Assembly: GCA_963769025.1 (NCBI GenBank)
Contig: CAVYKI010000006.1
Location: 608,001-672,000, forward strand
Direction: 5' to 3'
Origin: an uncultured Verrucomicrobiae bacterium
Lineage (GTDB): Bacteria > Verrucomicrobiota > Verrucomicrobiia > Chthoniobacterales > Chthoniobacteraceae
Length of the DNA: 64,000 nt
In this document: piece by piece, positions 31,925 through 52,318 of the stretch
Position numbering within the stretch: position 1 is the first letter of the stretch
Layout: each line of letters opens with the position of its first letter
Program-made: the position numbers and the translations under genes
The notes under the pieces: model-generated
Databases searched by the model: none
What the model was told of the DNA's origin: nothing
The model's input: only the letters and a program-made list of their open reading frames with translations

Positions 31925-33380
31925 ACCCGCGATCACTCAGGCAGAGCGCTCCGACTTCGGGGCTGCAAGATCGGCAACTGCCAGCGCTTATGAGTGGCCG
32001 CAGTTTGGGCGGAGGTTGGATGAGGAAAGTTTCATCGGACGAATACATCCAAAATCGGGACATTCTGCGTTCGGAGGTTGCTATGAAAAAGTCAACGCAA
32101 TCCACCAATCCCGAACCCTCTCACGACGAAATTTCCGCACGCGCGCAGCAGATTTACGAAGAACAGGGCTGCCCATGCGGGAAAGCTGAGGAGCACTGGC
32201 GCGAAGCCGAGTGCCAATTGCGGGAGGCGAAGGCCAGTGACGCAGAGATGGGTGTTGTAGGTGCCCCGGCGCCGACAAAACCCGTGGCGGGCGCTTAACA
32301 GACCGGCCAGTTCGAAAACTTCTGCCAGCAACTCTCCGAGCAGAAGCCCGGAGTCTGCTTCTGGTCCCGCCAAAGCTGCTCAGCCAACACAGGCCGCGGC
32401 GCGGTGCGCCTCGGAATCTGTTGAAATGAGCCAACGCCAATTCTTCCGCCTATTTGGCCGCGAGCTGCGAATTCGTTGTGGATGAAATCACTTCCATCGA
32501 TATTTCGGGACGCCTTCGCCTCGTGGATGGCGCACAAGGGTCCCAAAATGGGCGCGGCTCTGGCGTATTACACGGCGTTCTCGCTGGCACCTCTGCTCGT
32601 GCTTCTTGCGGGCATTTTAGGATTGGTGATTGATAATGATACGGCACGGACAGCGCTTGTGGGTCAGATTCACGACCTCATGGGCGACGAGGGCGGTGCA
32701 ATGGTCGAAGCGATCCTCCAACGCTCAGCACCGCACGAAAAGGGCGTATTGGCGACAATCATTGGCTCAGTGGTCTTGCTGTTAGGGGCGTCCGGCGTAT
32801 TTGTTGAACTGCACGACTCGCTGAACACCATCTGGGAAACCCCGCCGCGCTCCCGGCCATGGGTTGCATTCATCTGCGAGCGGCTGCTGTCGTTCGCGAT
32901 GGTGTTCGCCCTTGGCTTCCTCGTGCTGGTGTCGCTCGTCGCGTCGGCGATCCTCGCAGCGGTAGGTTCCTACGTGAAAGGCTGGGCACCTGGATTCGAG
33001 GTGCTCTTGGAAGCCGCCAACTCGCTGGTGTCGTTCGTGGTGGTCACGATGCTGTTCGGGGGACTGTTTCGGTTCCTGCCGGATGTGAAGGTCGCATGGC
33101 GCAATGTCTGGGCGGGAGCGGTCATCACGGCGGCGCTCTTCATTCTCGGAAAATTCCTCATTGGGTTCTACATCGGACGAAGCAGTTTCGCATCGGCGTA
33201 CGGTGCCGCAGGATCCCTTGTGATCGTCCTGGTGTGGGTTTTCTATTCAGCGCAGATTTTCTTTTTCGGCGCGGAATTCACCCGGGCATTCGCACGCACG
33301 AACGGAGGCGTTCGAACGGCTCGGCATTCTGACCGCACGACATCCCTCGCTGCGATGCCTGCAGCACCGGAGGGCAACTT
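31867..33380 (+). repeat. copy 1 of a ~1514-bp direct duplication
   Basis: Matches 42822-44335 at offset 10955; only two substitutions seen by eye. Confidence 0.95.
32083..32298 (+). CDS. DUF2934-like small protein
   Basis: ISARAQQIYEEQGCP.G...HWREAE. Confidence 0.8.
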   Translation: MKKSTQSTNPEPSHDEISARAQQIYEEQGCPCGKAEEHWREAECQLREAKASDAEMGVVGAPAPTKPVAGA

Positions 33381-42821: not shown

Positions 42822-44335
42822 CAAAAAAGGCGGTCGCAAGGGTGGGCGCTCGGGAAGCAAGCGGAAGACCAAAGCTTGAACCCGCGATCACTCAGGCAGA
42901 GCGCTCCGACTTCGGGGCTGCAAAATCGGCAACTGCCAGCGCTTATGAGTGGCCGCAGTTTGGGCGGAGGTTGGATGAGGAAAGTTTCATCGGACGAATA
43001 CATCCAAAATCGGGACATTCTGCGTTCGGAGGTTGCTATGAAAAAGTCAACGCAATCCACCAATCCCGAACCCTCTCACGACGAAATTTCCGCACGCGCG
43101 CAGCAGATTTACGAAGAACAGGGCTGCCCATGCGGGAAAGCTGAGGAGCACTGGCGCGAAGCCGAGTGCCAATTGCGGGAGGCGAAGGCCAGTGACGCAG
43201 AGATGGGTGTTGTAGGTGCCCCGGCGCCGACAAAACCCGTGGCGGGCGCTTAACAGACCGGCCAGTTCGAAAACTTCTGCCAGCAACTCTCCGAGCAGAA
43301 GCCCGGAGTCTGCTTCTGGTCCCGCCAAAGCTGCTCAGCCAACACAGGCCGCGGCGCGGTGCGCCTCGGAATCTGTTGAAATGAGCCAACGCCAATTCTT
43401 CCGCCTATTTGGCCGCGAGCTGCGAATTCGTTGTGGATGAAATCACTTCCATCGATATTTCGGGACGCCTTCGCCTCGTGGATGGCGCACAAGGGTCCCA
43501 AAATGGGCGCGGCTCTGGCGTATTACACGGCGTTCTCGCTGGCACCTCTGCTCGTGCTTCTTGCGGGCATTTTAGGATTGGTGATTGATAATGATACGGC
43601 ACGGACAGCGCTTGTGGGTCAGATTCACGACCTCATGGGCGACGAGGGCGGTGCAATGGTCGAAGCGATCCTCCAACGCTCAGCACCGCACGAAAAGGGC
43701 GTATTGGCGACAATCATTGGCTCAGTGGTCTTGCTGTTAGGGGCGTCCGGCGTATTTGTTGAACTGCACGACTCGCTGAACACCATCTGGGAAACCCCGC
43801 CGCGCTCCCGGCCATGGGTTGCATTCATCTGCGAGCGGCTGCTGTCGTTCGCGATGGTGTTCGCCCTTGGCTTCCTCGTGCTGGTGTCGCTCGTCGCGTC
43901 GGCGATCCTCGCAGCGGTAGGTTCCTACGTGAAAGGCTGGGCACCTGGATTCGAGGTGCTCTTGGAAGCCGCCAACTCGCTGGTGTCGTTCGTGGTGGTC
44001 ACGTTGCTGTTCGGGGGACTGTTTCGGTTCCTGCCGGATGTGAAGGTCGCATGGCGCAATGTCTGGGCGGGAGCGGTCATCACGGCGGCGCTCTTCATTC
44101 TCGGAAAATTCCTCATTGGGTTCTACATCGGACGAAGCAGTTTCGCATCGGCGTACGGTGCCGCAGGATCCCTTGTGATCGTCCTGGTGTGGGTTTTCTA
44201 TTCAGCGCAGATTTTCTTTTTCGGCGCGGAATTCACCCGGGCATTCGCACGCACGAACGGAGGCGTTCGAACGGCTCGGCATTCTGACCGCACGACATCC
44301 CTCGCTGCGATGCCTGCAGCACCGGAGGGCAACTT
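42822..44335 (+). repeat. copy 2 of the ~1514-bp direct duplication
   Basis: Matches 31867-33380; ends exactly at the IS left end. Confidence 0.95.
43038..43253 (+). CDS. DUF2934-like small protein (duplicate)
   Basis: Same protein as 32083-32298. Confidence 0.8.
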   Translation: MKKSTQSTNPEPSHDEISARAQQIYEEQGCPCGKAEEHWREAECQLREAKASDAEMGVVGAPAPTKPVAGA

Positions 44336-44387
44336 GAGACCTCTGCGAAAAGCGAGTTTGCGCATGATAGGCAGGCATGAAAGCTAA
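43437..44387 (+). CDS. YihY/BrkB-family protein (duplicate; C-terminus extended into the IS)
   Basis: Same as copy 1 except one M->L change and the IS-derived tail RPLRKASLRMIGRHES. Confidence 0.88.
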   Translation: MKSLPSIFRDAFASWMAHKGPKMGAALAYYTAFSLAPLLVLLAGILGLVIDNDTARTALVGQIHDLMGDEGGAMVEAILQRSAPHEKGVLATIIGSVVLLLGASGVFVELHDSLNTIWETPPRSRPWVAFICERLLSFAMVFALGFLVLVSLVASAILAAVGSYVKGWAPGFEVLLEAANSLVSFVVVTLLFGGLFRFLPDVKVAWRNVWAGAVITAALFILGKFLIGFYIGRSSFASAYGAAGSLVIVLVWVFYSAQIFFFGAEFTRAFARTNGGVRTARHSDRTTSLAAMPAAPEGNLRPLRKASLRMIGRHES

Positions 44388-45528
44388 ACGGCGGAAATTT
44401 GCGGGCGGGGCTCGGCGCAGACGGAGTGGGAACAGCCGGACGGGTGGTGAAAAGCCAAGGTCATCGTCCCGGTGGGGGCGCTCCGGGGTGTGCGGCGGGT
44501 GGTTTTCATGCGGTGCACAGGGTCACGAGACGCTTGAGGTTCCAGGCCACGCTCTTGAGCTGGAGTTCGAGGGTGCCTTTGCGCAGGCCGGTGTAGCGCA
44601 TCCGCCGCCAGCCGAGTACGCGCTTCCAGTGGCCGAAGATTTTCTCGATGCCGGCGCGCGTGGCAGCCAGCCAGCCGTTGACCTCCTGCTGCTCGTCGGT
44701 GAGCGGGCGGTTGCGGCGCGCGGGCTCCATCAGCCCGCTGTGGATGCCTCGGGCGGCCAGCCATGCCTCGTGCTCGGCGCTGTAGTAGGCTTTGTCGGCG
44801 ATGGCCATCTCGGTGTCCGCCGGGCACACGTCCTTGAATTTTCGGCTGTCATGCACATTAGCTGCCGTCAGTTCCGCGGTGCGGATGAGCGTGTGCTCCT
44901 CGTCGGCGGCGACGTGTGCCTTGAACCCGTAATAGGCCCGGCCTCCCTTGGTCGCGTAGCCGGCCTCGGGGTCGCCCTGCGTGCCGTCGGCGCGCTCGGC
45001 ATGGGTGGGCTTGCGCCGCGCACTCTCGACGATGGTCGCATCCACGAGCGTGACGCTTTTGACCATCAGCCCGCGCGCTTCGAGTTGGGCATTCACCAGT
45101 CCGAGCAGCCGCGTGTGCAGCCCCCTCGCCACCAGCCGTGCGCGATACCGAACAAGCGCCGTCTCGTCCGGCACGCGATCCGCCAGGCCCAGCCCGCAGA
45201 ACTCCCGGAAGCTGCGCCGGTCGGCCACCTGCGCCTCGCACTCCGGGTCGCTCAAGTCATAGAAGTGCTGCAGCAGCGTCATCTTGAACATCACCAGCGG
45301 GTCGTGCGGGTCGCGCCCGCGCGTGGCCGTGTATGCCTCACGCAGCGCTGCCTCGATCGGCGTGAAGTCCACCACACTCTCCAGCTTGCCGAGGAATCTC
45401 GCCGTGCGGTTGCCCCGGTTCTCACGGTTGGCCATCTCATCCACGAAGTTCATCTGACGTTCGCTTTTGCTCATGCGTTCTTCGATCCCTCTCCCTCACA
45501 TGCCTTGGGGGATTTTCGCAGAGGTCTC
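44336..45528 (-). mobile_element. IS5-family insertion sequence (IS1106-like ends)
   Basis: Perfect 16-bp terminal inverted repeats GAGACCTCTGCGAAAA (44336-44351 and 45513-45528) around one transposase gene. Confidence 0.93.
44506..45474 (-). CDS. IS5-family DDE transposase
   Basis: LSDP..E...DRRSFR.FCGL..VPDET, VDAT, GFKAH, ADKAY, RAGIEKIFG..KR. Confidence 0.95.
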   Translation of the reverse strand: MSKSERQMNFVDEMANRENRGNRTARFLGKLESVVDFTPIEAALREAYTATRGRDPHDPLVMFKMTLLQHFYDLSDPECEAQVADRRSFREFCGLGLADRVPDETALVRYRARLVARGLHTRLLGLVNAQLEARGLMVKSVTLVDATIVESARRKPTHAERADGTQGDPEAGYATKGGRAYYGFKAHVAADEEHTLIRTAELTAANVHDSRKFKDVCPADTEMAIADKAYYSAEHEAWLAARGIHSGLMEPARRNRPLTDEQQEVNGWLAATRAGIEKIFGHWKRVLGWRRMRYTGLRKGTLELQLKSVAWNLKRLVTLCTA

Positions 45529-45764
45529 AGAATGTTTGCAAATATAGGGTTTTGCGCGGCATGACGCAGGAGGAGCTCGCGGCGAAGGCGGAAATGGACC
45601 GGAGCTACCTCGCGCGGATCGAGTCCGGCAATGCGAAGGCGTCGGTGGACCTCATCGAGCGCCTCGCGATGGGGCTGGAGGTCGCCCCGGAGAAATTGCT
45701 TCACGGCTATGCCCGGAGCGCCGGGGCCTTGCGGTCGCGGAATGGGAGCCATCAGCCGGCGTGA
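45529..45764 (+). pseudogene. XRE-family HTH regulator, 5' end probably cut by the IS
   Basis: Frame reads (Q)NVCKYRVLRGMTQEELAAKAEMDRSYLARIESG..SVDLIERLAMGLEV from the IS end onward. Confidence 0.75.
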
Positions 45765-45859
45765 TCCCCGGGCCATGCGTTTCATAGTGTCAGCCAATGG
45801 GAACGGGACGGGCGGGAACGGGGGGATTCCTGCGCAGGACACGCTGCTCCCCGGTCTCA

Positions 45860-46392
45860 TTAGGCAATCATTCCTGAGGGATGGGAGGGTCCGGGTCGCG
45901 GCCGGACAATCGTTCCCGGCAGACAACTCGCTCCGGGAGGCGGGCAGACAATCGTTTTCAAGGGACAACCCGCTCCGGCATCCCGAAACACAATCGTTTT
46001 CGGGGGACGACCGGCTCCGGCGGGTGAAAACACAATCGTTCCTGAGAGTCACCCGGCTCCGGTCTCTCAGGAATGATTGTGTTTTGGCACCCGCCGCTCT
46101 CAGTCCCGTCAAAACGCAATCAGTCCTGAGAGTCCCCACCCTGCCGGGTGAGAAAAGACAATCGTTATTGAGAGTCCCGAGCCGGTTGTCTGCCAATTTT
46201 GATTGTCGGGCGAGGCTCCGGAGCGAGGTGTCTGCCAATCCGGATTGTTTCCTGAGGTCCCGGAGCGGGGTGCCCCCCGAAAACGATTGTGTCCTGACGT
46301 TCCCGGGTCTCCTGCCGGTCAAAAATGATTGTTTTGCGGCGTTCCCAAGCGGGTCGCCGGTCGGGACGGATTGGTTTCCCGCCTCCCGGAGC
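45860..46392. repeat. 42-bp-period array of 13 degenerate units with orientation-switching CAATC/GATTG core
   Basis: Cores at 45865, 45907, 45949, 45991, 46033, 46075, 46117, 46159, 46201, 46243, 46285, 46327 and 46369. Confidence 0.92.
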
Positions 46393-46526
46393 CTTCCGTC
46401 CCCCGGGAAGCTTTGCGGATCGGGAGGGTCCAGTCTCAAGACGGCCAGGACCGAAAGCGGATGCGGCGAACGGGACTGTGGCATCGGCGCGCAGGCGCGT
46501 GGCGCAGTGAAGCGTGGCGGAGCCTT

Positions 46527-46659
46527 TGGACTGCGGCGGCTTGACGCCGCTTTCCGTTTCGAGGCTTGCCGAGAAGCCGGTGGTGCGGGGCTTCCCGATG
46601 GCCTCCCACGCTCGCCAAGGCTCGCCATACCCAAAGCGGCGTCAAGCCGCCGCACTCCA
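46527..46659. repeat. REP/MITE-like palindromic element
   Basis: tggactgcggcggcttgacgccgcttt ... aaagcggcgtcaagccgccgcactcca. Confidence 0.85.
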
Positions 46660-46702
46660 TGGGCTCCGCCCATCCTGCCGCGTGCCCGTTTTCCACTCCG
46701 TC

Positions 46703-47731
46703 ATGAGCCGCTGGGATGATCCGTCCACGACGTGGGACTCCTTTTTCTGGGATGCGCCGGATGCCCCGGTGCCGCCCCCGACCAAACACAGGAAAACAAA
46801 CCGACGAACCATGAGCAGCAACCCCACCCCGGACAACAACGACATCCTCCGCGCCCTGGCCGATCGCATCGCGGACGGGTGCAATACCCATGAAACGGCC
46901 ATCGGCATCAAGCAGAACACGGAGGCGGCCATCCGCGCGGCGCTCGCGGTCCTCGATGCGGCGCAGTACCAGCTCGGCCAGAAGCGGGCCGCGGTGGATG
47001 CCGGCTACGGAGCCATGCAGGCGGCGGATGTGGCCGGACAGACGACAGTCACGAACTGCAAGCTGCGCCTCCGGCAGAAGCTCGGCGAACGCTGGAGCGC
47101 GGCATGGGAGCCGACCGGCTTCCCGCACCAGTCCACCGCCGTGCCCGGCACGCAGGACGAGCGGTTCACGCTGCTCAAGAAGCTGAACACCTACTTCACC
47201 AATGTGCCTGCGAACGAAAGCGCCGACATGGGAGCGACCGCCGCGCTGTGCCTGGCGGCGTGGGACGCCCTCTCGAATGCCCGGCAGTCGGTGGCGGACG
47301 CCGAGGCCGCTGAGACCGGCGCCGCGAGCGCCCATGCCGCCGCCGCGGAAGCCCTTCGGAAGCGGGTGCGCGGGCTCATCAATGAGCTGGGCGGCCTGAT
47401 CGAGGACGACGACCCGCGCTACGAGGCGTTCGGCCTGAACATCCCGGCAAACCCGAGCGCGCCGGAGCCGGTGTCCGGCGTCACGCTGGCGCCGCTGGGC
47501 AACGGGCGCTTCTCGGCGAGCTGGCCCTACGCGACGCGGGCGGTGCGGTTCCGCGTGGAGACATTAGTCATGGGCACGGATACGGAATGGCAGAACAAGG
47601 GGAGCTTCCGGGACCTGGAGGCGATCCTGAAGAACTTCGCCGCGGGGCAGACCGTGAAGGTGCGGATCGTCGCCGGAAACGACGGCGGCGACGCCGCGCC
47701 GAGCCCGGAGGGGAGCGTCGTCGTCGCGTAA
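46703..47731 (+). CDS. hypothetical protein: WD-rich leader, Ala-rich helical region, C-terminal FN3-like domain (alternative start 46811)
   Basis: MSRWDDPSTTWDSFFWDAP; C-terminus PEPVSGVTL..SASW..FRV..VRIVAGNDGGDAAPS. Confidence 0.75.
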   Translation: MSRWDDPSTTWDSFFWDAPDAPVPPPTKHRKTNRRTMSSNPTPDNNDILRALADRIADGCNTHETAIGIKQNTEAAIRAALAVLDAAQYQLGQKRAAVDAGYGAMQAADVAGQTTVTNCKLRLRQKLGERWSAAWEPTGFPHQSTAVPGTQDERFTLLKKLNTYFTNVPANESADMGATAALCLAAWDALSNARQSVADAEAAETGAASAHAAAAEALRKRVRGLINELGGLIEDDDPRYEAFGLNIPANPSAPEPVSGVTLAPLGNGRFSASWPYATRAVRFRVETLVMGTDTEWQNKGSFRDLEAILKNFAAGQTVKVRIVAGNDGGDAAPSPEGSVVVA

Positions 47732-47756
47732 CGACGGGGGCGGGGCGGGGCGGGGT

Positions 47757-47913
47757 GAGAGTTGAGGGTTGAGGGTTGAGAGATGAGAGGCTGACTCGGC
47801 CGGCTAACAGTCCCCTTCCCTTTCAATAGCCTGCGTCCATCTCCGCATTGCATCAGTTCCCAGCTTCCGCCTCCTAACTTCCGCCTCTCCACTCTTAACC
47901 CTCAACTCTCAAC
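47757..47913. repeat. inverted heptamer repeats (GTTGAGR / YCTCAAC)
   Basis: gagagttgagggttgagggttgagag ... ctcttaaccctcaactctcaac. Confidence 0.7.
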
Positions 47914-47919
47914 TGAAGA

Positions 47920-48519
47920 ATGTTCGACCCTTCCCTCCCCGCCGATGCCACCAAGGCCACCGCCGCAGAGATGCGCGCGCAACTCACCGGGCTGAAGGCG
48001 GAAATCGACGCCATCCCGGGCATCACCTCGGCGGTGGTGGATTCGGTGACGACGACCGGTCCCGGCGAGCCGGCGACGGTGAGCGTGTCCGTGATCGGGA
48101 CGGTGTTGCATATTAGCCTTGCGCTGCCGCGCGGGGCGGATGGCGTCCCCGGCATGCAGGGCGAACAGGGGTTGCAAGGTCCGCCATTTGCCAGTGCGGT
48201 CATCGACAGCGTCGGCACGCTGAATCCCGGGGAGAATGCGACGGTGTCGGTGTCCTTCGACGGGAGCACGGTGCATTTCAGCTTTGGCATCCCGCGCGGG
48301 GCGCAGGGGGAGCAGGGCATCCAGGGCGAGTCGGGCCAGGTGACGACCGAGGCGCTCAACGGGGCGATTTCCTCTGCTCTCGCGGGCACCTCGAACAACA
48401 CGAACGGGGTCGCCGCCATGGACACGCCTTTCACCAACGACCCGCCGACCCTGGCCGACCTGGAGCTGATGCGGGCGAACTACAACCTGCTGGTCGCGGC
48501 GCTGCGCCGGCAGGTGTAG
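47920..48519 (+). CDS. collagen-like / fibre-like repeat protein
   Basis: Two ~35-aa beta-rich repeats (AVVDSV..PGEPATVSVS..HISLALPRG and AVIDSV..PGENATVSVS..HFSFGIPRG), each followed by G-X-Y triplets. Confidence 0.75.
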   Translation: MFDPSLPADATKATAAEMRAQLTGLKAEIDAIPGITSAVVDSVTTTGPGEPATVSVSVIGTVLHISLALPRGADGVPGMQGEQGLQGPPFASAVIDSVGTLNPGENATVSVSFDGSTVHFSFGIPRGAQGEQGIQGESGQVTTEALNGAISSALAGTSNNTNGVAAMDTPFTNDPPTLADLELMRANYNLLVAALRRQV

Positions 48520-48870
48520 CCCCTGGACTGCGGCAGCTCGCTGCCGCTTTCGGCTTCGAGGCTTGCCGAGAAGGGGGTGGGGCGTGTGACCGGATGCCAC
48601 CCCGCGCTCGCCAAGGCTCGCCGGCCACAAAGCGGAGGCGAGCCTCCGCAGTCCAGGGCTACGCGACACCTTTGAAGTTCGGGTCGTCGATTCCCTTCAG
48701 CTCGCTGCCGCTTTCGGCTTCGAGGCTTGCCGAGAAGGGGGTGGAGCGTGACCTTCGGCACGCTTCGCAGGGCAAGTCTTGCAAACGGAAACCCGGCCCG
48801 GACACCGCACCACGCTCGCCAAGGCTCGCCGGCCACAAAGCGGAGGCGAGCCTCCGCAGTCCAGGGCTAC
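48516..48870. repeat. two tandem REP/MITE-like elements separated by a duplicated gene end
   Basis: gtagcccctggactgcgg ... ccgcagtccagggctac; internal blocks shared with 46527-46659. Confidence 0.8.
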
Positions 48871-50264
48871 GCGACGCCTTTGAACTTCGGGTCGTCGATG
48901 CCCTTCAGCTCGCCGGTGCTGTCGGCGAAGCGGTCCAGCGGGACGCCGGCGCGCAGCAGCATCGAGTGCCATAGGTTCGCGAGCGGCGTTTTCTTTTCGT
49001 GGATGACGTGGCGGCCCGTGGCGATGGTTCCGCCGCCGCGGCCGGCGAGGACGATGGGAAGATTCTTCGGGCTGTGCGCGTTGCCGTCCCGGATTCCCCC
49101 GCCGAGCACGATCATGCAGTGGTCGAGCAAAGTGCCGGAACCTTCGCGGATGCTCCGGAGCTTTTCGACGAAGTAGGCGTACTGCTCGACGTGCCACTGG
49201 TTGATCTGCTGGTAGTGCGCCAGCTTGTCGGGCTTGTTTTCGTGGTGCGAAGTCTCGTGGTGGCCGCCGAAGTTCGCCCCGAGGAAGGCGAAGCTGCGGC
49301 TGCTCACGGCGTTGCCAAACATGAACGTGGAGATGCGCGTCGTGTCGGTCCAGAAGGCGAGCGCCATGAGGTCGAGCATGAGCCGCGTGTGCTCGGTGTG
49401 GTTGCCCGCGCGCTCGCTGAGGCGCGCGGGATCGGAATAGGCGTCGATGCGCCGGCCGAGATCATCGACCGCCGCGCGCGCCGCGGGATCTTCGTCCGCG
49501 TGCTCACGCTGCCTTTTCGCATCCCACTCGATGCGGCGTTCGACGGCACGGACGCTCTCCAGGTATTCGTCGAGCTTCGCGCGGTCGTTCGAGCCGAGCT
49601 TTTGCTGGAGGCGCTTCGCATCGCCGGCGACGAGGTCGAGCACGCTGCGGTCGCGGGTCGCCGCGAGGTCGGCGGCTGCGCGGCCGGTGGCCGCCTGCGG
49701 ACGGAAGATGCGGTCGAAGGCGAGCTTCGGGTTGATTTCCTTCGCGAGCGGCGTGGTCGGCTGGCTCCACGAGATGTGCGCGCCGTAGAGCTGCGTGTAG
49801 CCGACGTTCGTATCGACGCCGGTCGCGGGCGGCTCGATGCCGAGTTCCAGCGACGGCAGCCGGGTGAGGATGCCCACGCGCTTCGCGGCGACCTGATCCA
49901 TCGAGATGCCGTTGCTGTTCAGCTCGTCGCCGGTCGTGTGCGTGATCGTCGTGCTGGTGAGGTAGCCGCCGGTCTTCACGTAATGGCCGTCGCCGGTGTC
50001 GCTCGCGGCGTTCCACAGTTCGCTGAGCACGAGGATGTCGTCTTTCACCCCCGCAAGCGGGGCGAGCGTGGGCGAAAGCTCGAAGTCCGATCCCGTGCCC
50101 TTCGGCGTCCACATGCCGGGATGGACTCCATTGGCCATGTAAAGCTGCGCCATCCGCACGGGGAAGCGGGTGCTGGCGGCGGGGAGCATGGCCTCGAGCA
50201 CGGGAAGCGCGAGCGTGGCCCCGAGGCCCTTGAGCAATGTGCGGCGGCTGATGGCTGGGTTCAT
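48867..50264 (-). CDS. DUF1552 (PVC) protein
   Basis: ISRRTLLKGLG..LALPVLEAM, SMDQVAA, SLELG, EGSGTLLD, AHSPKNLP. Confidence 0.88.
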   Translation of the reverse strand: MNPAISRRTLLKGLGATLALPVLEAMLPAASTRFPVRMAQLYMANGVHPGMWTPKGTGSDFELSPTLAPLAGVKDDILVLSELWNAASDTGDGHYVKTGGYLTSTTITHTTGDELNSNGISMDQVAAKRVGILTRLPSLELGIEPPATGVDTNVGYTQLYGAHISWSQPTTPLAKEINPKLAFDRIFRPQAATGRAAADLAATRDRSVLDLVAGDAKRLQQKLGSNDRAKLDEYLESVRAVERRIEWDAKRQREHADEDPAARAAVDDLGRRIDAYSDPARLSERAGNHTEHTRLMLDLMALAFWTDTTRISTFMFGNAVSSRSFAFLGANFGGHHETSHHENKPDKLAHYQQINQWHVEQYAYFVEKLRSIREGSGTLLDHCMIVLGGGIRDGNAHSPKNLPIVLAGRGGGTIATGRHVIHEKKTPLANLWHSMLLRAGVPLDRFADSTGELKGIDDPKFKGVA

Positions 50265-52134
50265 GGAACGATTGCAGTGACCGACACCTCGGCGGGTTTG
50301 CGAAACTGGAACGGCCGGCTGCGCGCGATTTCGAGCACGAGGCGCTGCGTCCGGTATCCGTCCTTCGCGACGGCGCGCGCGATTTGCCGGATGGTCAGCC
50401 AGTCGGTCTGCTCGACGCCGCGGCCGAGCGCGTAGCTGAACATGCGCTCGGTGACGTTGCGCGTGAACTCATCCTTGCGATCGAGCAGCAGGCGCTTGAG
50501 TTCCGCCGGGCCGGTGAACTTGCTGCCATCGGGCAGCTCGCCGGAGGAGTCCACGGCGACATTCGCGACCGTCGTCCTCCAGGCGCCGATGGGATCGAAA
50601 TTTTCCAGCCCGAAGCCGAGCTGATCCATCGTCTTGTGGCATGCGGCGCACTCGGCCCTGCTGCGGTGCACCTCGAGTTGCTGGCGCAAGGTGAGGCCGT
50701 TGCGCGCCTTGTCGGATGTCGGCAGCGCCTTGATCATCGGCGGAGGCGGAGGCGGAGGAGTGCCGAGGATTTCCTCCATCAGCCACTTTCCGCGCAGCAC
50801 CGGACTGCTCCGGCGCGGGTAGCTCGTGAGCGTGAGCACGCCGGCCATCGTGAGCACGCCGCCGCGATTCCGATCCGTGACCGGCACCCGCTGGAAGCCT
50901 TCGCCCTCCACCTCGCCGAAGCCGTAGAATTTCGCGAGCTCCGCATTCGCGTAGGTGTAGTCGGCGTCGATGCACTCGGTGAGCGGGCGGTTCTCGCGCA
51001 GCAGCGCGTGGAAAAATGCGACCGGCTCGCCGGCCATCGCGTCGCGCAGCGCGGGAGTGAAGCCGGGGAACCTGTCCTGTCGCCGGCCGGACGCTCGTCT
51101 GCAGTTCCCTCGTCCGCAGCCACTGGCTGGCGAAATTCTCCGCAAAGGTGCGCGCCTTCGGGTCCGCGAGCATCCGGCCCACCTGCGCCTCGAGGGTCGC
51201 GGCGATCCGAAAGTTTGCCGTCCTGCGCGAGCGCGAACAGCGGCTCGTCGGGCATCGAGGACCACAGGAAGTAGCTCAGGCGCGACGCGAGTTCCCAATC
51301 GCTGATCCGCTGCGGCTGGATGCCCGGGCGATCCTGCTCGGCGCGGAAAAGGAACGATGGCGAGACCAGGAGCACGCGCACGCATTGCCGCATCGCGTCC
51401 TCCCACGAGGCGCCCTGCTTGCGCGATTCCTCGTGGAGTGCGAGCAGCGGGGCGAGTTCGTCGTCCGCCACCGGACGGCGGAAGGCCCGCGGCGCCAGCC
51501 ATGCGAGATTTTCCCGCGCAGCGGAGTAATCGTCCTTCCCCGCGCCCGGCCGCACGTGAAAGAGGCGCTCGGGCTTCGCCGCCGTGACGATGTCCGTCGC
51601 CGCGGCGAGATATTTCTCCATCAGGATGGGCGGGACGAAGAGCGTCGCGGCGTTGTTGTCGAATCCGCCGCCGCCGCCGGCGTCGGGCGGAAAGCGGTCC
51701 GCGGGATGCGATTCCACGCCGAGCAGGTCGCGCACGGTGTTGTTGTATTCGAGCCGGCTGAGGCGGTGGATGAGCTTGCGGCCGACATCGGACGGCACCA
51801 GGAGCGGGTCAGGATTGTCCAGCGTCGAGGAAAGCCACGCCGTGACCAGCGCGCGTTCCGCAGGCGTCGGCTGCGCCTTTTTGGCCGGCGGCATCGAGGC
51901 GTCGCGGACGGCATTGAGCGTCTTTTCCCAAGTCTTCGGCTCGCTCCAAAACGCGCCCTTCGCCGACAGAGCCTCCAGATTCACGCCACCCTTCGCCGTG
52001 TCGTCATGGCAGCCGAAGCAGTAGTTTTGCAAGACCGGCAAGACATCCTTCCCGAAGTCAGAGGCGACGACTCCCCTCTGTAAGGCGCTCACCCCGAGCG
52101 CCGCCACTGACAGGATGAGGGTTGCTCTCGTCAC
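50261..52134 (-). pseudogene. cytochrome c + PSD-domain (DUF1587/1595/1592/1588/1585-type) protein, frameshifted
   Basis: CFGCH, RLSRLEYNNTVRDL, ELASRLSYFLWSSMPD, SPVLRGKW, CAACH spread over three frames (shifts near 51200 and 51080). Confidence 0.8.
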
Positions 52135-52318
52135 GGGCGGAATCTTTGGGACTCCATTTAAGCTTAAAGTATGCGACCCGCGGAAAAAGGGAAGCGGAAA
52201 CTTTGACCCTCCCGTTCCATCCGGCCAAGGGACAGGCACTTCCGATTATGAATTTTCCATAAGAAAAAATCTGCGTGTCATTTCTGCGACGAACCTGAAC
52301 CGGGCCGACGGCCGCAAC

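Follow-up and report, generated by a model that had tools for sequence, protein, structure and literature searches.

An adaptor and fibre gene cassette with a 42-bp tandem array that recurs in Verrucomicrobiota, a candidate fibre system of phage ancestry

BclA of the Bacillus exosporium is a collagen-like trimer that lacks a signal peptide, is assembled inside the cell and docks on an anchor protein by a short N-terminal region. The global repressor omega of plasmid pSM19035 binds runs of short repeats, which may be direct or inverted. In the sopC site of the F plasmid a 43-bp unit is repeated directly 12 times, and SopB binds the 16-bp inverted repeat that each unit carries (PMC3177203). The locus described here is a cassette of a regulator gene, a tandem repeat array and the genes of an adaptor and a fibre protein. 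It lies in a window of 64,000 nucleotides, the whole stretch of DNA analysed, on contig CAVYKI010000006.1 of an uncultured Verrucomicrobiae bacterium of the Chthoniobacteraceae.

The array is like sopC with SopB (PMC3177203) in having about 10–12 head-to-tail units of about four helical turns, a palindrome in each unit, and candidate phased sites for a dimeric helix-turn-helix (HTH) protein. On this likeness sopC may be taken as the closest formal analogue of the array. Unlike sopC, the arrays of the cassette are chromosomal, exist in several copies, stand directly upstream of a structural gene, have units specific to each locus, and in some cases have a 21-bp period. The repeats are of the kind found in ParABS systems; ParA- or ParB-type genes were neither found in the cassette nor seen in the flanks examined. 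Like the operators of omega, the array is a contiguous run of repeats in mixed orientation placed before promoters, but its unit is 42 bp instead of 7 bp, its binder is postulated, and it has no plasmid context. The fibre resembles phage tail-fibre shafts (IMG/VR loci L055–L059), in which a beta unit is followed by a G-X-Y run, with 26–56% identity over 33–111 residues. It differs from those phage fibres in being 199 aa long, in having its own conserved N- and C-terminal helices, and in standing outside any phage. The likeness to BclA is one of proposed working, and no sequence relationship is claimed; the host here belongs to a Gram-negative, non-sporulating lineage and the partner protein has another fold.

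We are highly confident that the cassette is real and that its architecture recurs. Its function we read tentatively, with slightly less than even confidence, as that of a fibre cassette of phage ancestry that duplicates and regulates itself; the array would be a helically phased, protein-binding DNA platform, and the leader of the adaptor would dock a trimeric collagen-like fibre. A first-pass annotation, made from the letters of the window, had proposed an undescribed module at this place. The module does recur, and no published description of the cassette was found, judged on titles and abstracts.

The cassette and its recurrence

The window holds one damaged copy of the cassette. Its order is Cro/C1-type regulator, 42-bp-period array, 342-aa adaptor, hairpin spacer and 199-aa fibre, with the parts at or near the positions where the first-pass annotation had placed them:

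45552..45764, plus strand: Cro/C1 (XRE) HTH regulator, 5'-truncated (HTH_3 expectation value (E) 1.6e-11, 44.5 bits against a cut-off of 23)
45865..46340, no strand: phased tandem array of 12 units in mixed orientation (exact 42-bp spacing by motif scan)
46703..47731, plus strand: adaptor, 342 aa (disordered Trp-Asp leader with basic patch 1–36, acidic helical bundle 37–250, FN3 domain 252–342)
47756..47914, plus strand: intergenic hairpin in the adaptor-fibre spacer (inverted repeat with 35-nt arms, 86% complementary)
47920..48519, plus strand: fibre, 199 aa (N-terminal helix of about 35 aa, two beta units each followed by a G-X-Y run, C-terminal helix)

The three plus-strand genes have a G+C content at third codon positions (GC3) of 0.88–0.89, and the two long open reading frames (ORFs) that span the array have 0.66–0.67. 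Family scans with Pfam, NCBIfam and PADLOC found no nuclease, reverse transcriptase or recombinase among the cassette proteins, as had been remarked from the letters alone.

The genome of the window (G000, 5.34 Mb in 13 contigs, 83% complete) contains 4 adaptor copies, one of them frameshifted, and 7 fibre genes. The frameshifted paralogue lies 11 kb before the window (G000:C6:596209-597355), with its N- and C-terminal parts in different frames. The adaptor was detected in 16 of 41 genomes drawn as relatives. These are the own genome, 14 of 24 genomes of the same genus and 1 of 16 from elsewhere in the order, and a single genome holds as many as 13 matches. Of 300 further genomes sampled across the phylum, only 2 gave a match. 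The source names of homologues indicate Verrucomicrobiaceae, Chthoniobacteraceae and Prosthecobacter.

The array recurs together with the genes, the co-occurrence in other genomes on which the proposal of a module depended. A single script scored 38 loci, and the counts refer to the 34 with a near-full helical domain of the adaptor, 3 fragments and 1 locus without a match being excluded. An array with a period of 20–22, 40–44, 63, 84 or 126 bp lies at most 900 bp upstream of the adaptor in 26 of these 34 loci; 4 of the 26 array calls are weak, with at most 2.2 copies. The 5.3-Mb own genome has 79 tandem arrays with a score of at least 80. Because only 15 of them have period 42 and 6 have period 21, the association of array and adaptor is far beyond chance. 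The arrays that stand with the paralogues in the own genome have periods of 42 bp (8.7 and 10 copies, 91–94% matches), 21 bp (18.7 copies), 21/42 bp (11 copies) and 22/44 bp (8 copies).

Duplication of the cassette as a unit is seen on contig C21 of genome G014, where 2626 bp occur twice, 31 kb apart, at 99.9% identity (L067:4916-7541 and L068:4831-7456). The duplicated unit begins with 560 bp of upstream sequence and runs on through a 41-bp array to the adaptor and fibre genes. Its 5' end resembles repetitive extragenic palindromic (REP) elements, its borders are sharp, and there is no recombinase gene within it.

The phased array and the regulator

The motif scan places 12 cores at 45865+42k, with k from 0 to 11 and a net indel of zero over 462 bp, which bears out the 42-bp array of the first-pass annotation. 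Tandem Repeats Finder reports the segment 45922–46040, with period 42, 2.8 copies and 76% matches. Units 1–5, 7 and 8 (7 cores) point one way, and units 6 and 9–12 (5 cores) are inverted. The units are mutually only 62–77% identical. The orthologous array of another species (L007) keeps the 42-bp register over 546 bp, with one 41-bp step at the orientation flip. An array of the window type also stands alone in the own genome (G000:C9:1222533-1223139), upstream of mfd (TRCF) with no cassette genes nearby. It is 81% identical over 416 nt, keeps the 42-bp register over its first 294 bp only, and has one 83-bp step. Three diverged copies of the window-type array thus hold the 42-bp register without indel build-up, save for the single 41- and 83-bp steps.

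Between loci the unit sequences vary and the period is retained, even in other families and across classes of the phylum. From 2 to 12 units of 42 bp were seen. The palindromic core GAGNCTC is present in 17 of 24 arrays, mostly inside the box GGAGNCTCC, and 13 of 24 consensus units have a second, locus-specific palindrome with arms of 5–9 bp. Relative to the gene, the shared box may point either way. The own genome has fewer GGAGNCTCC boxes than base composition would predict (80 sites, about 189 expected), and 22 of the 80 lie in three arrays.

The mixed orientation, together with a period of two or four helical turns, suggests that the array acts as duplex DNA and not as RNA. We judge it very improbable that the array is transcribed within an operon of XRE, adaptor and fibre genes as a string of RNA hairpins, serving as a regulatory leader or a protein-binding RNA. 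Such an RNA would agree with the co-directional XRE gene, with an array that takes up nearly the whole spacer between XRE and adaptor, with the perfect palindromes of many units (possible hairpins of 8–9 bp), and with the basic patch in the adaptor leader. A scan of 45400–48950, in itself little informative, gives no sigma-70-type promoter, which would also fit a common transcript, and 6 terminator-like sites against 2.9 expected. However, periods of 21 or 42 bp make sense for a DNA helix but not for RNA, both orientations are found among the units and among the shared boxes, and Rfam has no match in 45400–48950 at E≤1. Adaptor and fibre are acidic overall, and arrays also precede unrelated genes such as mfd.

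Three other assignments were set aside. A coding repeat of 14 aa is contradicted by the 41-bp periods and the mixed orientation, and no GC3 coding signal is seen. A CRISPR array does not agree with contiguous units that have no spacers; there is no Rfam match, and no Cas family was found in the scanned cassette and flank proteins. Binding of the array by the adaptor or the fibre was judged unlikely, as both are acidic (isoelectric points: adaptor 5.5, its helical part 5.1, fibre 4.3).

Another explanation, which we hold to be rather unlikely, would make the arrays minisatellites, selfish or neutral, or else products of palindrome recombination, carried along by a plain operon of two genes and a regulator without taking part in its expression. 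Several properties of the own genome agree with it. Period 42 is its commonest tandem period, with period 21 joint second beside period 150 (6 arrays each), and a copy of the window-type array stands alone before mfd. One 21-bp unit is found at three places (C10:337034, C9:210326 and C13:22037), only one of which adjoins a cassette. The similarity between arrays, moreover, follows that of neither protein closely. On the other side, the period survives turnover of the unit sequence even in other families of the phylum, and the place directly before the adaptor start is retained in the 26 loci counted above. The 42-bp register has also survived about 25–40% divergence between units, bar the 41- and 83-bp steps, where neutral indels should have eroded it.

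The regulator gene of the window covers positions 8–55 of the 55 of the HTH_3 profile, so that, unlike typical Cro/C1 repressors, it is without the first helix. The word remnant, used in the first-pass annotation, was right. Its score places it in the XRE family; a complete five-helix domain with its own start is not present. The in-frame sequence 5' of the ORF is the end of an insertion sequence (IS), whose inverted repeat stops 22 bp upstream of the ORF. Relatives have intact counterparts of 93–214 aa. The cassette XREs match HTH_3, HTH_31 and HTH_19 and are highly divergent, with 18–47% identity in most of the non-orthologous pairs compared. Among 13 close-homologue loci with at least 1 kb of upstream sequence, 11 have a co-directional XRE gene upstream of the array; of the two exceptions, one has a LuxR-type gene on the opposite strand and the other gives no Pfam match.

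Over 55 locus pairs, the similarity of the arrays is uncorrelated with that of the XREs (Spearman 0.05) and weakly correlated with that of the adaptors (0.40). Loci L006 and L021 have XREs that are 63% identical with nearly the same recognition helix, and their arrays are unlike. L006 and L009 have arrays that are alike and XREs that are unrelated. Binding of the variable palindrome of the array by the XRE was set aside on the Spearman value of 0.05 and on the unlike arrays of L006 and L021, and the cassette's own XRE probably does not bind the array. L006 and L021 have in common a different palindrome just upstream of the XRE gene. Autoregulation upstream of its own gene would fit this shared palindrome, and the XRE appears, from such sequence comparison, to act there.

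The formal likeness to sopC allows a further reading, which we regard as unlikely. The array would be a bacterial control element of a new type, a sopC-like nucleation track before a structural operon, on which a postulated protein polymerises at sites two or four turns apart, and the gain or loss of whole units would act as a heritable, phase-keeping rheostat. Array, adaptor and fibre would duplicate themselves without a recombinase and would build, by means of the Trp-Asp docking peptide, a phage-independent appendage or a released whisker. A filament or particle built on the periodic nucleic acid itself, as the first-pass annotation had speculated, was not upheld: the proteins are acidic, solo arrays exist, and distant homologues keep the array without a fibre.

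Adaptor, fibre and the phage connection

The adaptor starts at a conserved ATG at 46703, which gives 342 aa and not 306 or 405; relatives align to residues 1–341, and many database homologues are about 342 aa long. The AlphaFold model, from a 32-row alignment, has a mean predicted local distance difference test (pLDDT) value of 88.1. Residues 1–29 are predicted to be a disordered leader. The predicted helices span residues 46–243 and include two long ones, 74–127 and 180–232 (53–54 residues). The C-terminal domain belongs to the FN3 family: the family profile matches titin FN3 at E 9e-21, and the model superposes on FN3 structures with Z 15.3 and a root-mean-square deviation of 1.4 Å over 89 residues. 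The long helices and the terminal FN3-like sandwich described in the first-pass annotation are thus borne out.

A single-sequence Pfam scan of the adaptor gave nothing at E≤0.1, and the helical part falls under no family of Pfam, NCBIfam, PADLOC or PHROG. It matches 1276 representative clusters (50% identity) at E≤0.001, none of them functionally named. No longer fused forms were found among 7997 candidates, which is weak evidence. Searches with the whole model by Foldseek (PDB, BFVD) and VIA-align wide returned matches filled by FN3, so that the helical bundle was barely probed. In agreement with the first reading of the window, neither adaptor nor fibre shows a signal-peptide-like stretch by a hydropathy check, made without a dedicated predictor: over 15-residue windows that begin within the first 45 residues, the Kyte-Doolittle value peaks at −0.27 in the adaptor and at 1.23 in the fibre.

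The fibre agrees with the 199-aa protein of G-X-Y triplets and beta repeats first described from the letters, in that two beta units are each followed by a G-X-Y run. The two runs have about 5–6 triplets each. Pfam Collagen (PF01391) scores 20.7 bits on the window fibre, under the cut-off of 27.2, and 53.7 bits on the fibre paralogue on C2. The window fibre may be taken as a collagen-like copy with a putative triple helix. The model of the monomer is unusable (mean pLDDT 47.9). The first 35 residues and the C-terminal helix are conserved across all fibre variants, and there are at least 981 relatives, none functionally named. The C-terminal 70-residue domain also ends a 529-aa frame (G000:C12:168047-169633), the remainder of which the fibre profile does not match.

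The presence of a fibre gene goes with the leader of the protein encoded upstream. A fibre gene is downstream in 12 of 15 adaptor loci with a Trp-Asp leader and in 2 of 2 with another aromatic leader, together 14 of 17. It is downstream in none of 17 loci without such a leader, of which 3 have a Trp-Gly-type leader and some have only 500–1000 bp of downstream sequence. All 7 fibre genes of the own genome follow a gene whose product starts with a Trp-rich leader together with a proline-rich stretch and a basic patch. The bodies behind these leaders are of four different kinds: a helical/FN3 body of 342 aa (three times), one of 199 aa, one of about 285 aa (twice, once frameshifted) and a helical/FN3 body of 291 aa. 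This distribution suggests that the adaptor leader may dock the N-terminus of the fibre.

Elsewhere in the own genome, a 42-bp array of four units lies directly 5' of a 510-aa ORF with a Trp-Gly-type leader (G000:C2:176310-178164). The adaptor profile has no match to this ORF, though its leader resembles that of some distant adaptor homologues.

Phage ancestry is indicated by the shaft of the fibre. Predicted fibre proteins of 6 IMG/VR loci share its beta/collagen unit with 26–56% identity (tblastn E 5e-8 to 8e-4); these proteins have 345–1103 aa and other termini. PHROG gives weak tail, minor-tail and tail-fibre matches, with E from 1.8e-5 upward. In the protein Atlas the fibre falls among Verrucomicrobial collagen-like clusters, and a viral cluster with Phage_head_fibr and Collagen is a lead only. 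The phage proteins of L056, L058 and L059 have a C-terminal tail that, by eye, we take to be chaperone-like. The shaft is thus homologous to phage fibres, and the gene does not stand among phage structural or lysis genes. The flanks of 9 places in the own genome and of 20 extended loci of relatives hold unrelated genes (mostly by eye, with selected Pfam scans); those of the extended loci include sulfatases, transporters and helicases. No phage structural gene was recognisable in the flank ORFs of the 20 extended loci, inspected by eye with selected ORFs scanned. Seven marker families (sheath, HK97 capsid, baseplate J, portal, encapsulin, T4 gp19 and TerL) are without a match in the own genome at 83% completeness, although the gp19 control matched no control genome either. 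A scan of IMG/VR viral contigs with the adaptor matched only a 17-aa leader-like stretch.

That stretch lies in a 687-aa structural protein on a podovirus-like contig (L061:3392-5455) and is 71% identical to the Trp-Asp leader. Its likeness may be due to chance or to a common docking motif.

An ordinary, decayed prophage tail-fibre remnant would share the shaft unit with phage fibres, would give the weak PHROG matches, and would sit well beside an IS. We nevertheless find it hardly credible. The architecture is compact at dozens of loci, with intact ORFs 60–78% identical across species. By eye, with selected ORFs scanned, no phage structural genes were recognised in the 20 extended loci, and the own genome, 83% complete, is without a match to the seven particle marker families. 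No PHROG family fits the adaptor, and its match in IMG/VR is confined to 17 residues. In the scans made, neither adaptor nor array turned up in complete phage genomes. The first-pass annotation had named prophage tail remnants as the outcome that would undo it, and they are not what was found.

The phage ancestry of the fibre also agrees with an anti-phage or decoy module, in which free fibres or adaptor-fibre complexes would block receptors or phage assembly and the divergent copies would reflect an arms race. The cassette is multi-copy, patchy and fast-diverging, it has an XRE as many defence loci do, its XRE matches the PADLOC entries 'Control_protein' and 'capH', and locus L031 adjoins TIR and PIN/MazE genes. 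Such a role is still improbable. Adaptor and fibre match no family of PADLOC-DB 2.0 at E≤1, a library of systems described by 2023, and the cassette has no enzymatic effector. Neighbours of the TIR/PIN/MazE type were seen in 1 of 27 loci, with 56 upstream ORFs scanned against Pfam and the extended flanks read by eye only.

In the self-regulated fibre cassette that we tentatively prefer, the array would act as double-stranded DNA. At intervals of 21 or 42 bp, equal to two or four turns, its units would turn one or two short palindromes towards the same side of the helix. The phased sites would be a platform for a dimeric DNA-binding factor that sets transcription into the adaptor-fibre pair, and the gain or loss of units would change the number of sites and leave their phase unchanged. 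The factor would probably be other than the cassette XRE, which would regulate itself at the palindrome 5' of its own gene. The Trp-Asp leader of the adaptor would dock the N-terminal 35 residues of the trimeric collagen-like fibre. The product would be a Sec-independent whisker of phage origin, assembled in the cytoplasm and now free of any phage particle. The window copy would have lost the promoter of the regulator and its first helix in an IS-associated rearrangement and would probably be misregulated.

Several observations weigh against this proposal. The array-binding factor is postulated and is the main gap in the mechanism. An array is missing upstream of the adaptor in 8 of the 34 loci (2 of the 8 had less than 700 bp of upstream sequence), and 3 of the 15 loci with a Trp-Asp leader are without a fibre gene. 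Solo arrays exist, namely the one upstream of mfd and the 21-bp unit at three places with a cassette at one, and arrays may belong to these genomes in general, or may be selfish repeats that travel with the cassette. The counts across loci are not phylogenetically independent and overstate the independent support, as the loci are kin and near-copies occur among them (L024/L025, L009/L010/L022 and L045/L050). XRE genes were not found upstream of the distant adaptor homologues, and the putative XRE operator comes from the single pair L006/L021. The hairpin of the window, with an uninterrupted stem of 23 bp, is no better than shuffled sequence (z 0.18 against dinucleotide shuffles).

An array that keeps its period while its sequence is replaced is a cis element that present genome annotation ignores. 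If the phased platform is true, plasmid centromeres would have a chromosomal counterpart close to genes, which might also be a new type of contingency locus. If the docking of leader and fibre is true, the leader would be a portable peptide tag for attaching trimeric fibres. The presence of seven phage-type fibre genes in a genome where phage particle genes were undetected calls for caution in prophage or host-range calls made from fibre-like genes.

Surroundings of the window copy

The spacer between adaptor and fibre genes has 188 nt. The arms of its hairpin are made of complementary heptamer repeats, and the 3' arm ends 5 nt before the start codon of the fibre. Counterpart spacers have z of −3.7 or lower against mononucleotide shuffles in 9 of 14 loci, the window giving −0.9 in the same run, and against dinucleotide shuffles the spacer of paralogue L023 reaches z −8.2. 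In three loci the spacer is 36–68 nt long and has no hairpin. The hairpin is a frequent, not a universal, part of the cassette.

The cassette interval is bounded by an IS on one side and a convergent DUF1552 gene on the other, and dispersed elements lie within it:

44335..45529, minus strand: IS element (DDE transposase 44506–45474; Pfam DDE_Tnp_1 91.7 bits, DUF772 71.9 bits)
46516..46670, no strand: REP-like palindromic dispersed element of about 155 bp, between array and adaptor (38-nt arms, 92% complementary)
48521..48866, no strand: two REP-like elements (48521–48658 and 48700–48866), between fibre and DUF1552 gene (repeat families D2–D4 and D7)
48867–50264, minus strand: DUF1552 gene (Pfam 345 bits)

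The IS ends in perfect 17-bp inverted repeats (44335–44351 and 45513–45529). It abuts and truncates the regulator gene and is context, not part of the cassette; a comparison with plasmids gave no match. Its left flank, 44201–44335, is a 100% duplicate (135 bp) of window positions 33246–33380, the 3' end of a BrkB-like gene, and the duplicate stops exactly at the IS inverted repeat. Because of this duplication, an IS-mediated rearrangement rather than a simple insertion is suggested to have removed the 5' end of the regulator.

Neither the REP-like elements nor the hairpin had been mentioned in the first-pass annotation. The REP-like element between array and adaptor has 41 blastn matches genome-wide and is present at the same position in L007 and L021. 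The stretch 48521–48866, which contains inverted repeats I6 and I7, has 108. Beside the DUF1552 gene, two long ORFs on the minus strand, 50261–51502 and 50779–52239, overlap by about 700 bp in different frames and look like one frameshifted gene or an assembly error. Four DNA sequencing runs contain small shares (0.06–0.20) of words from the studied stretch.

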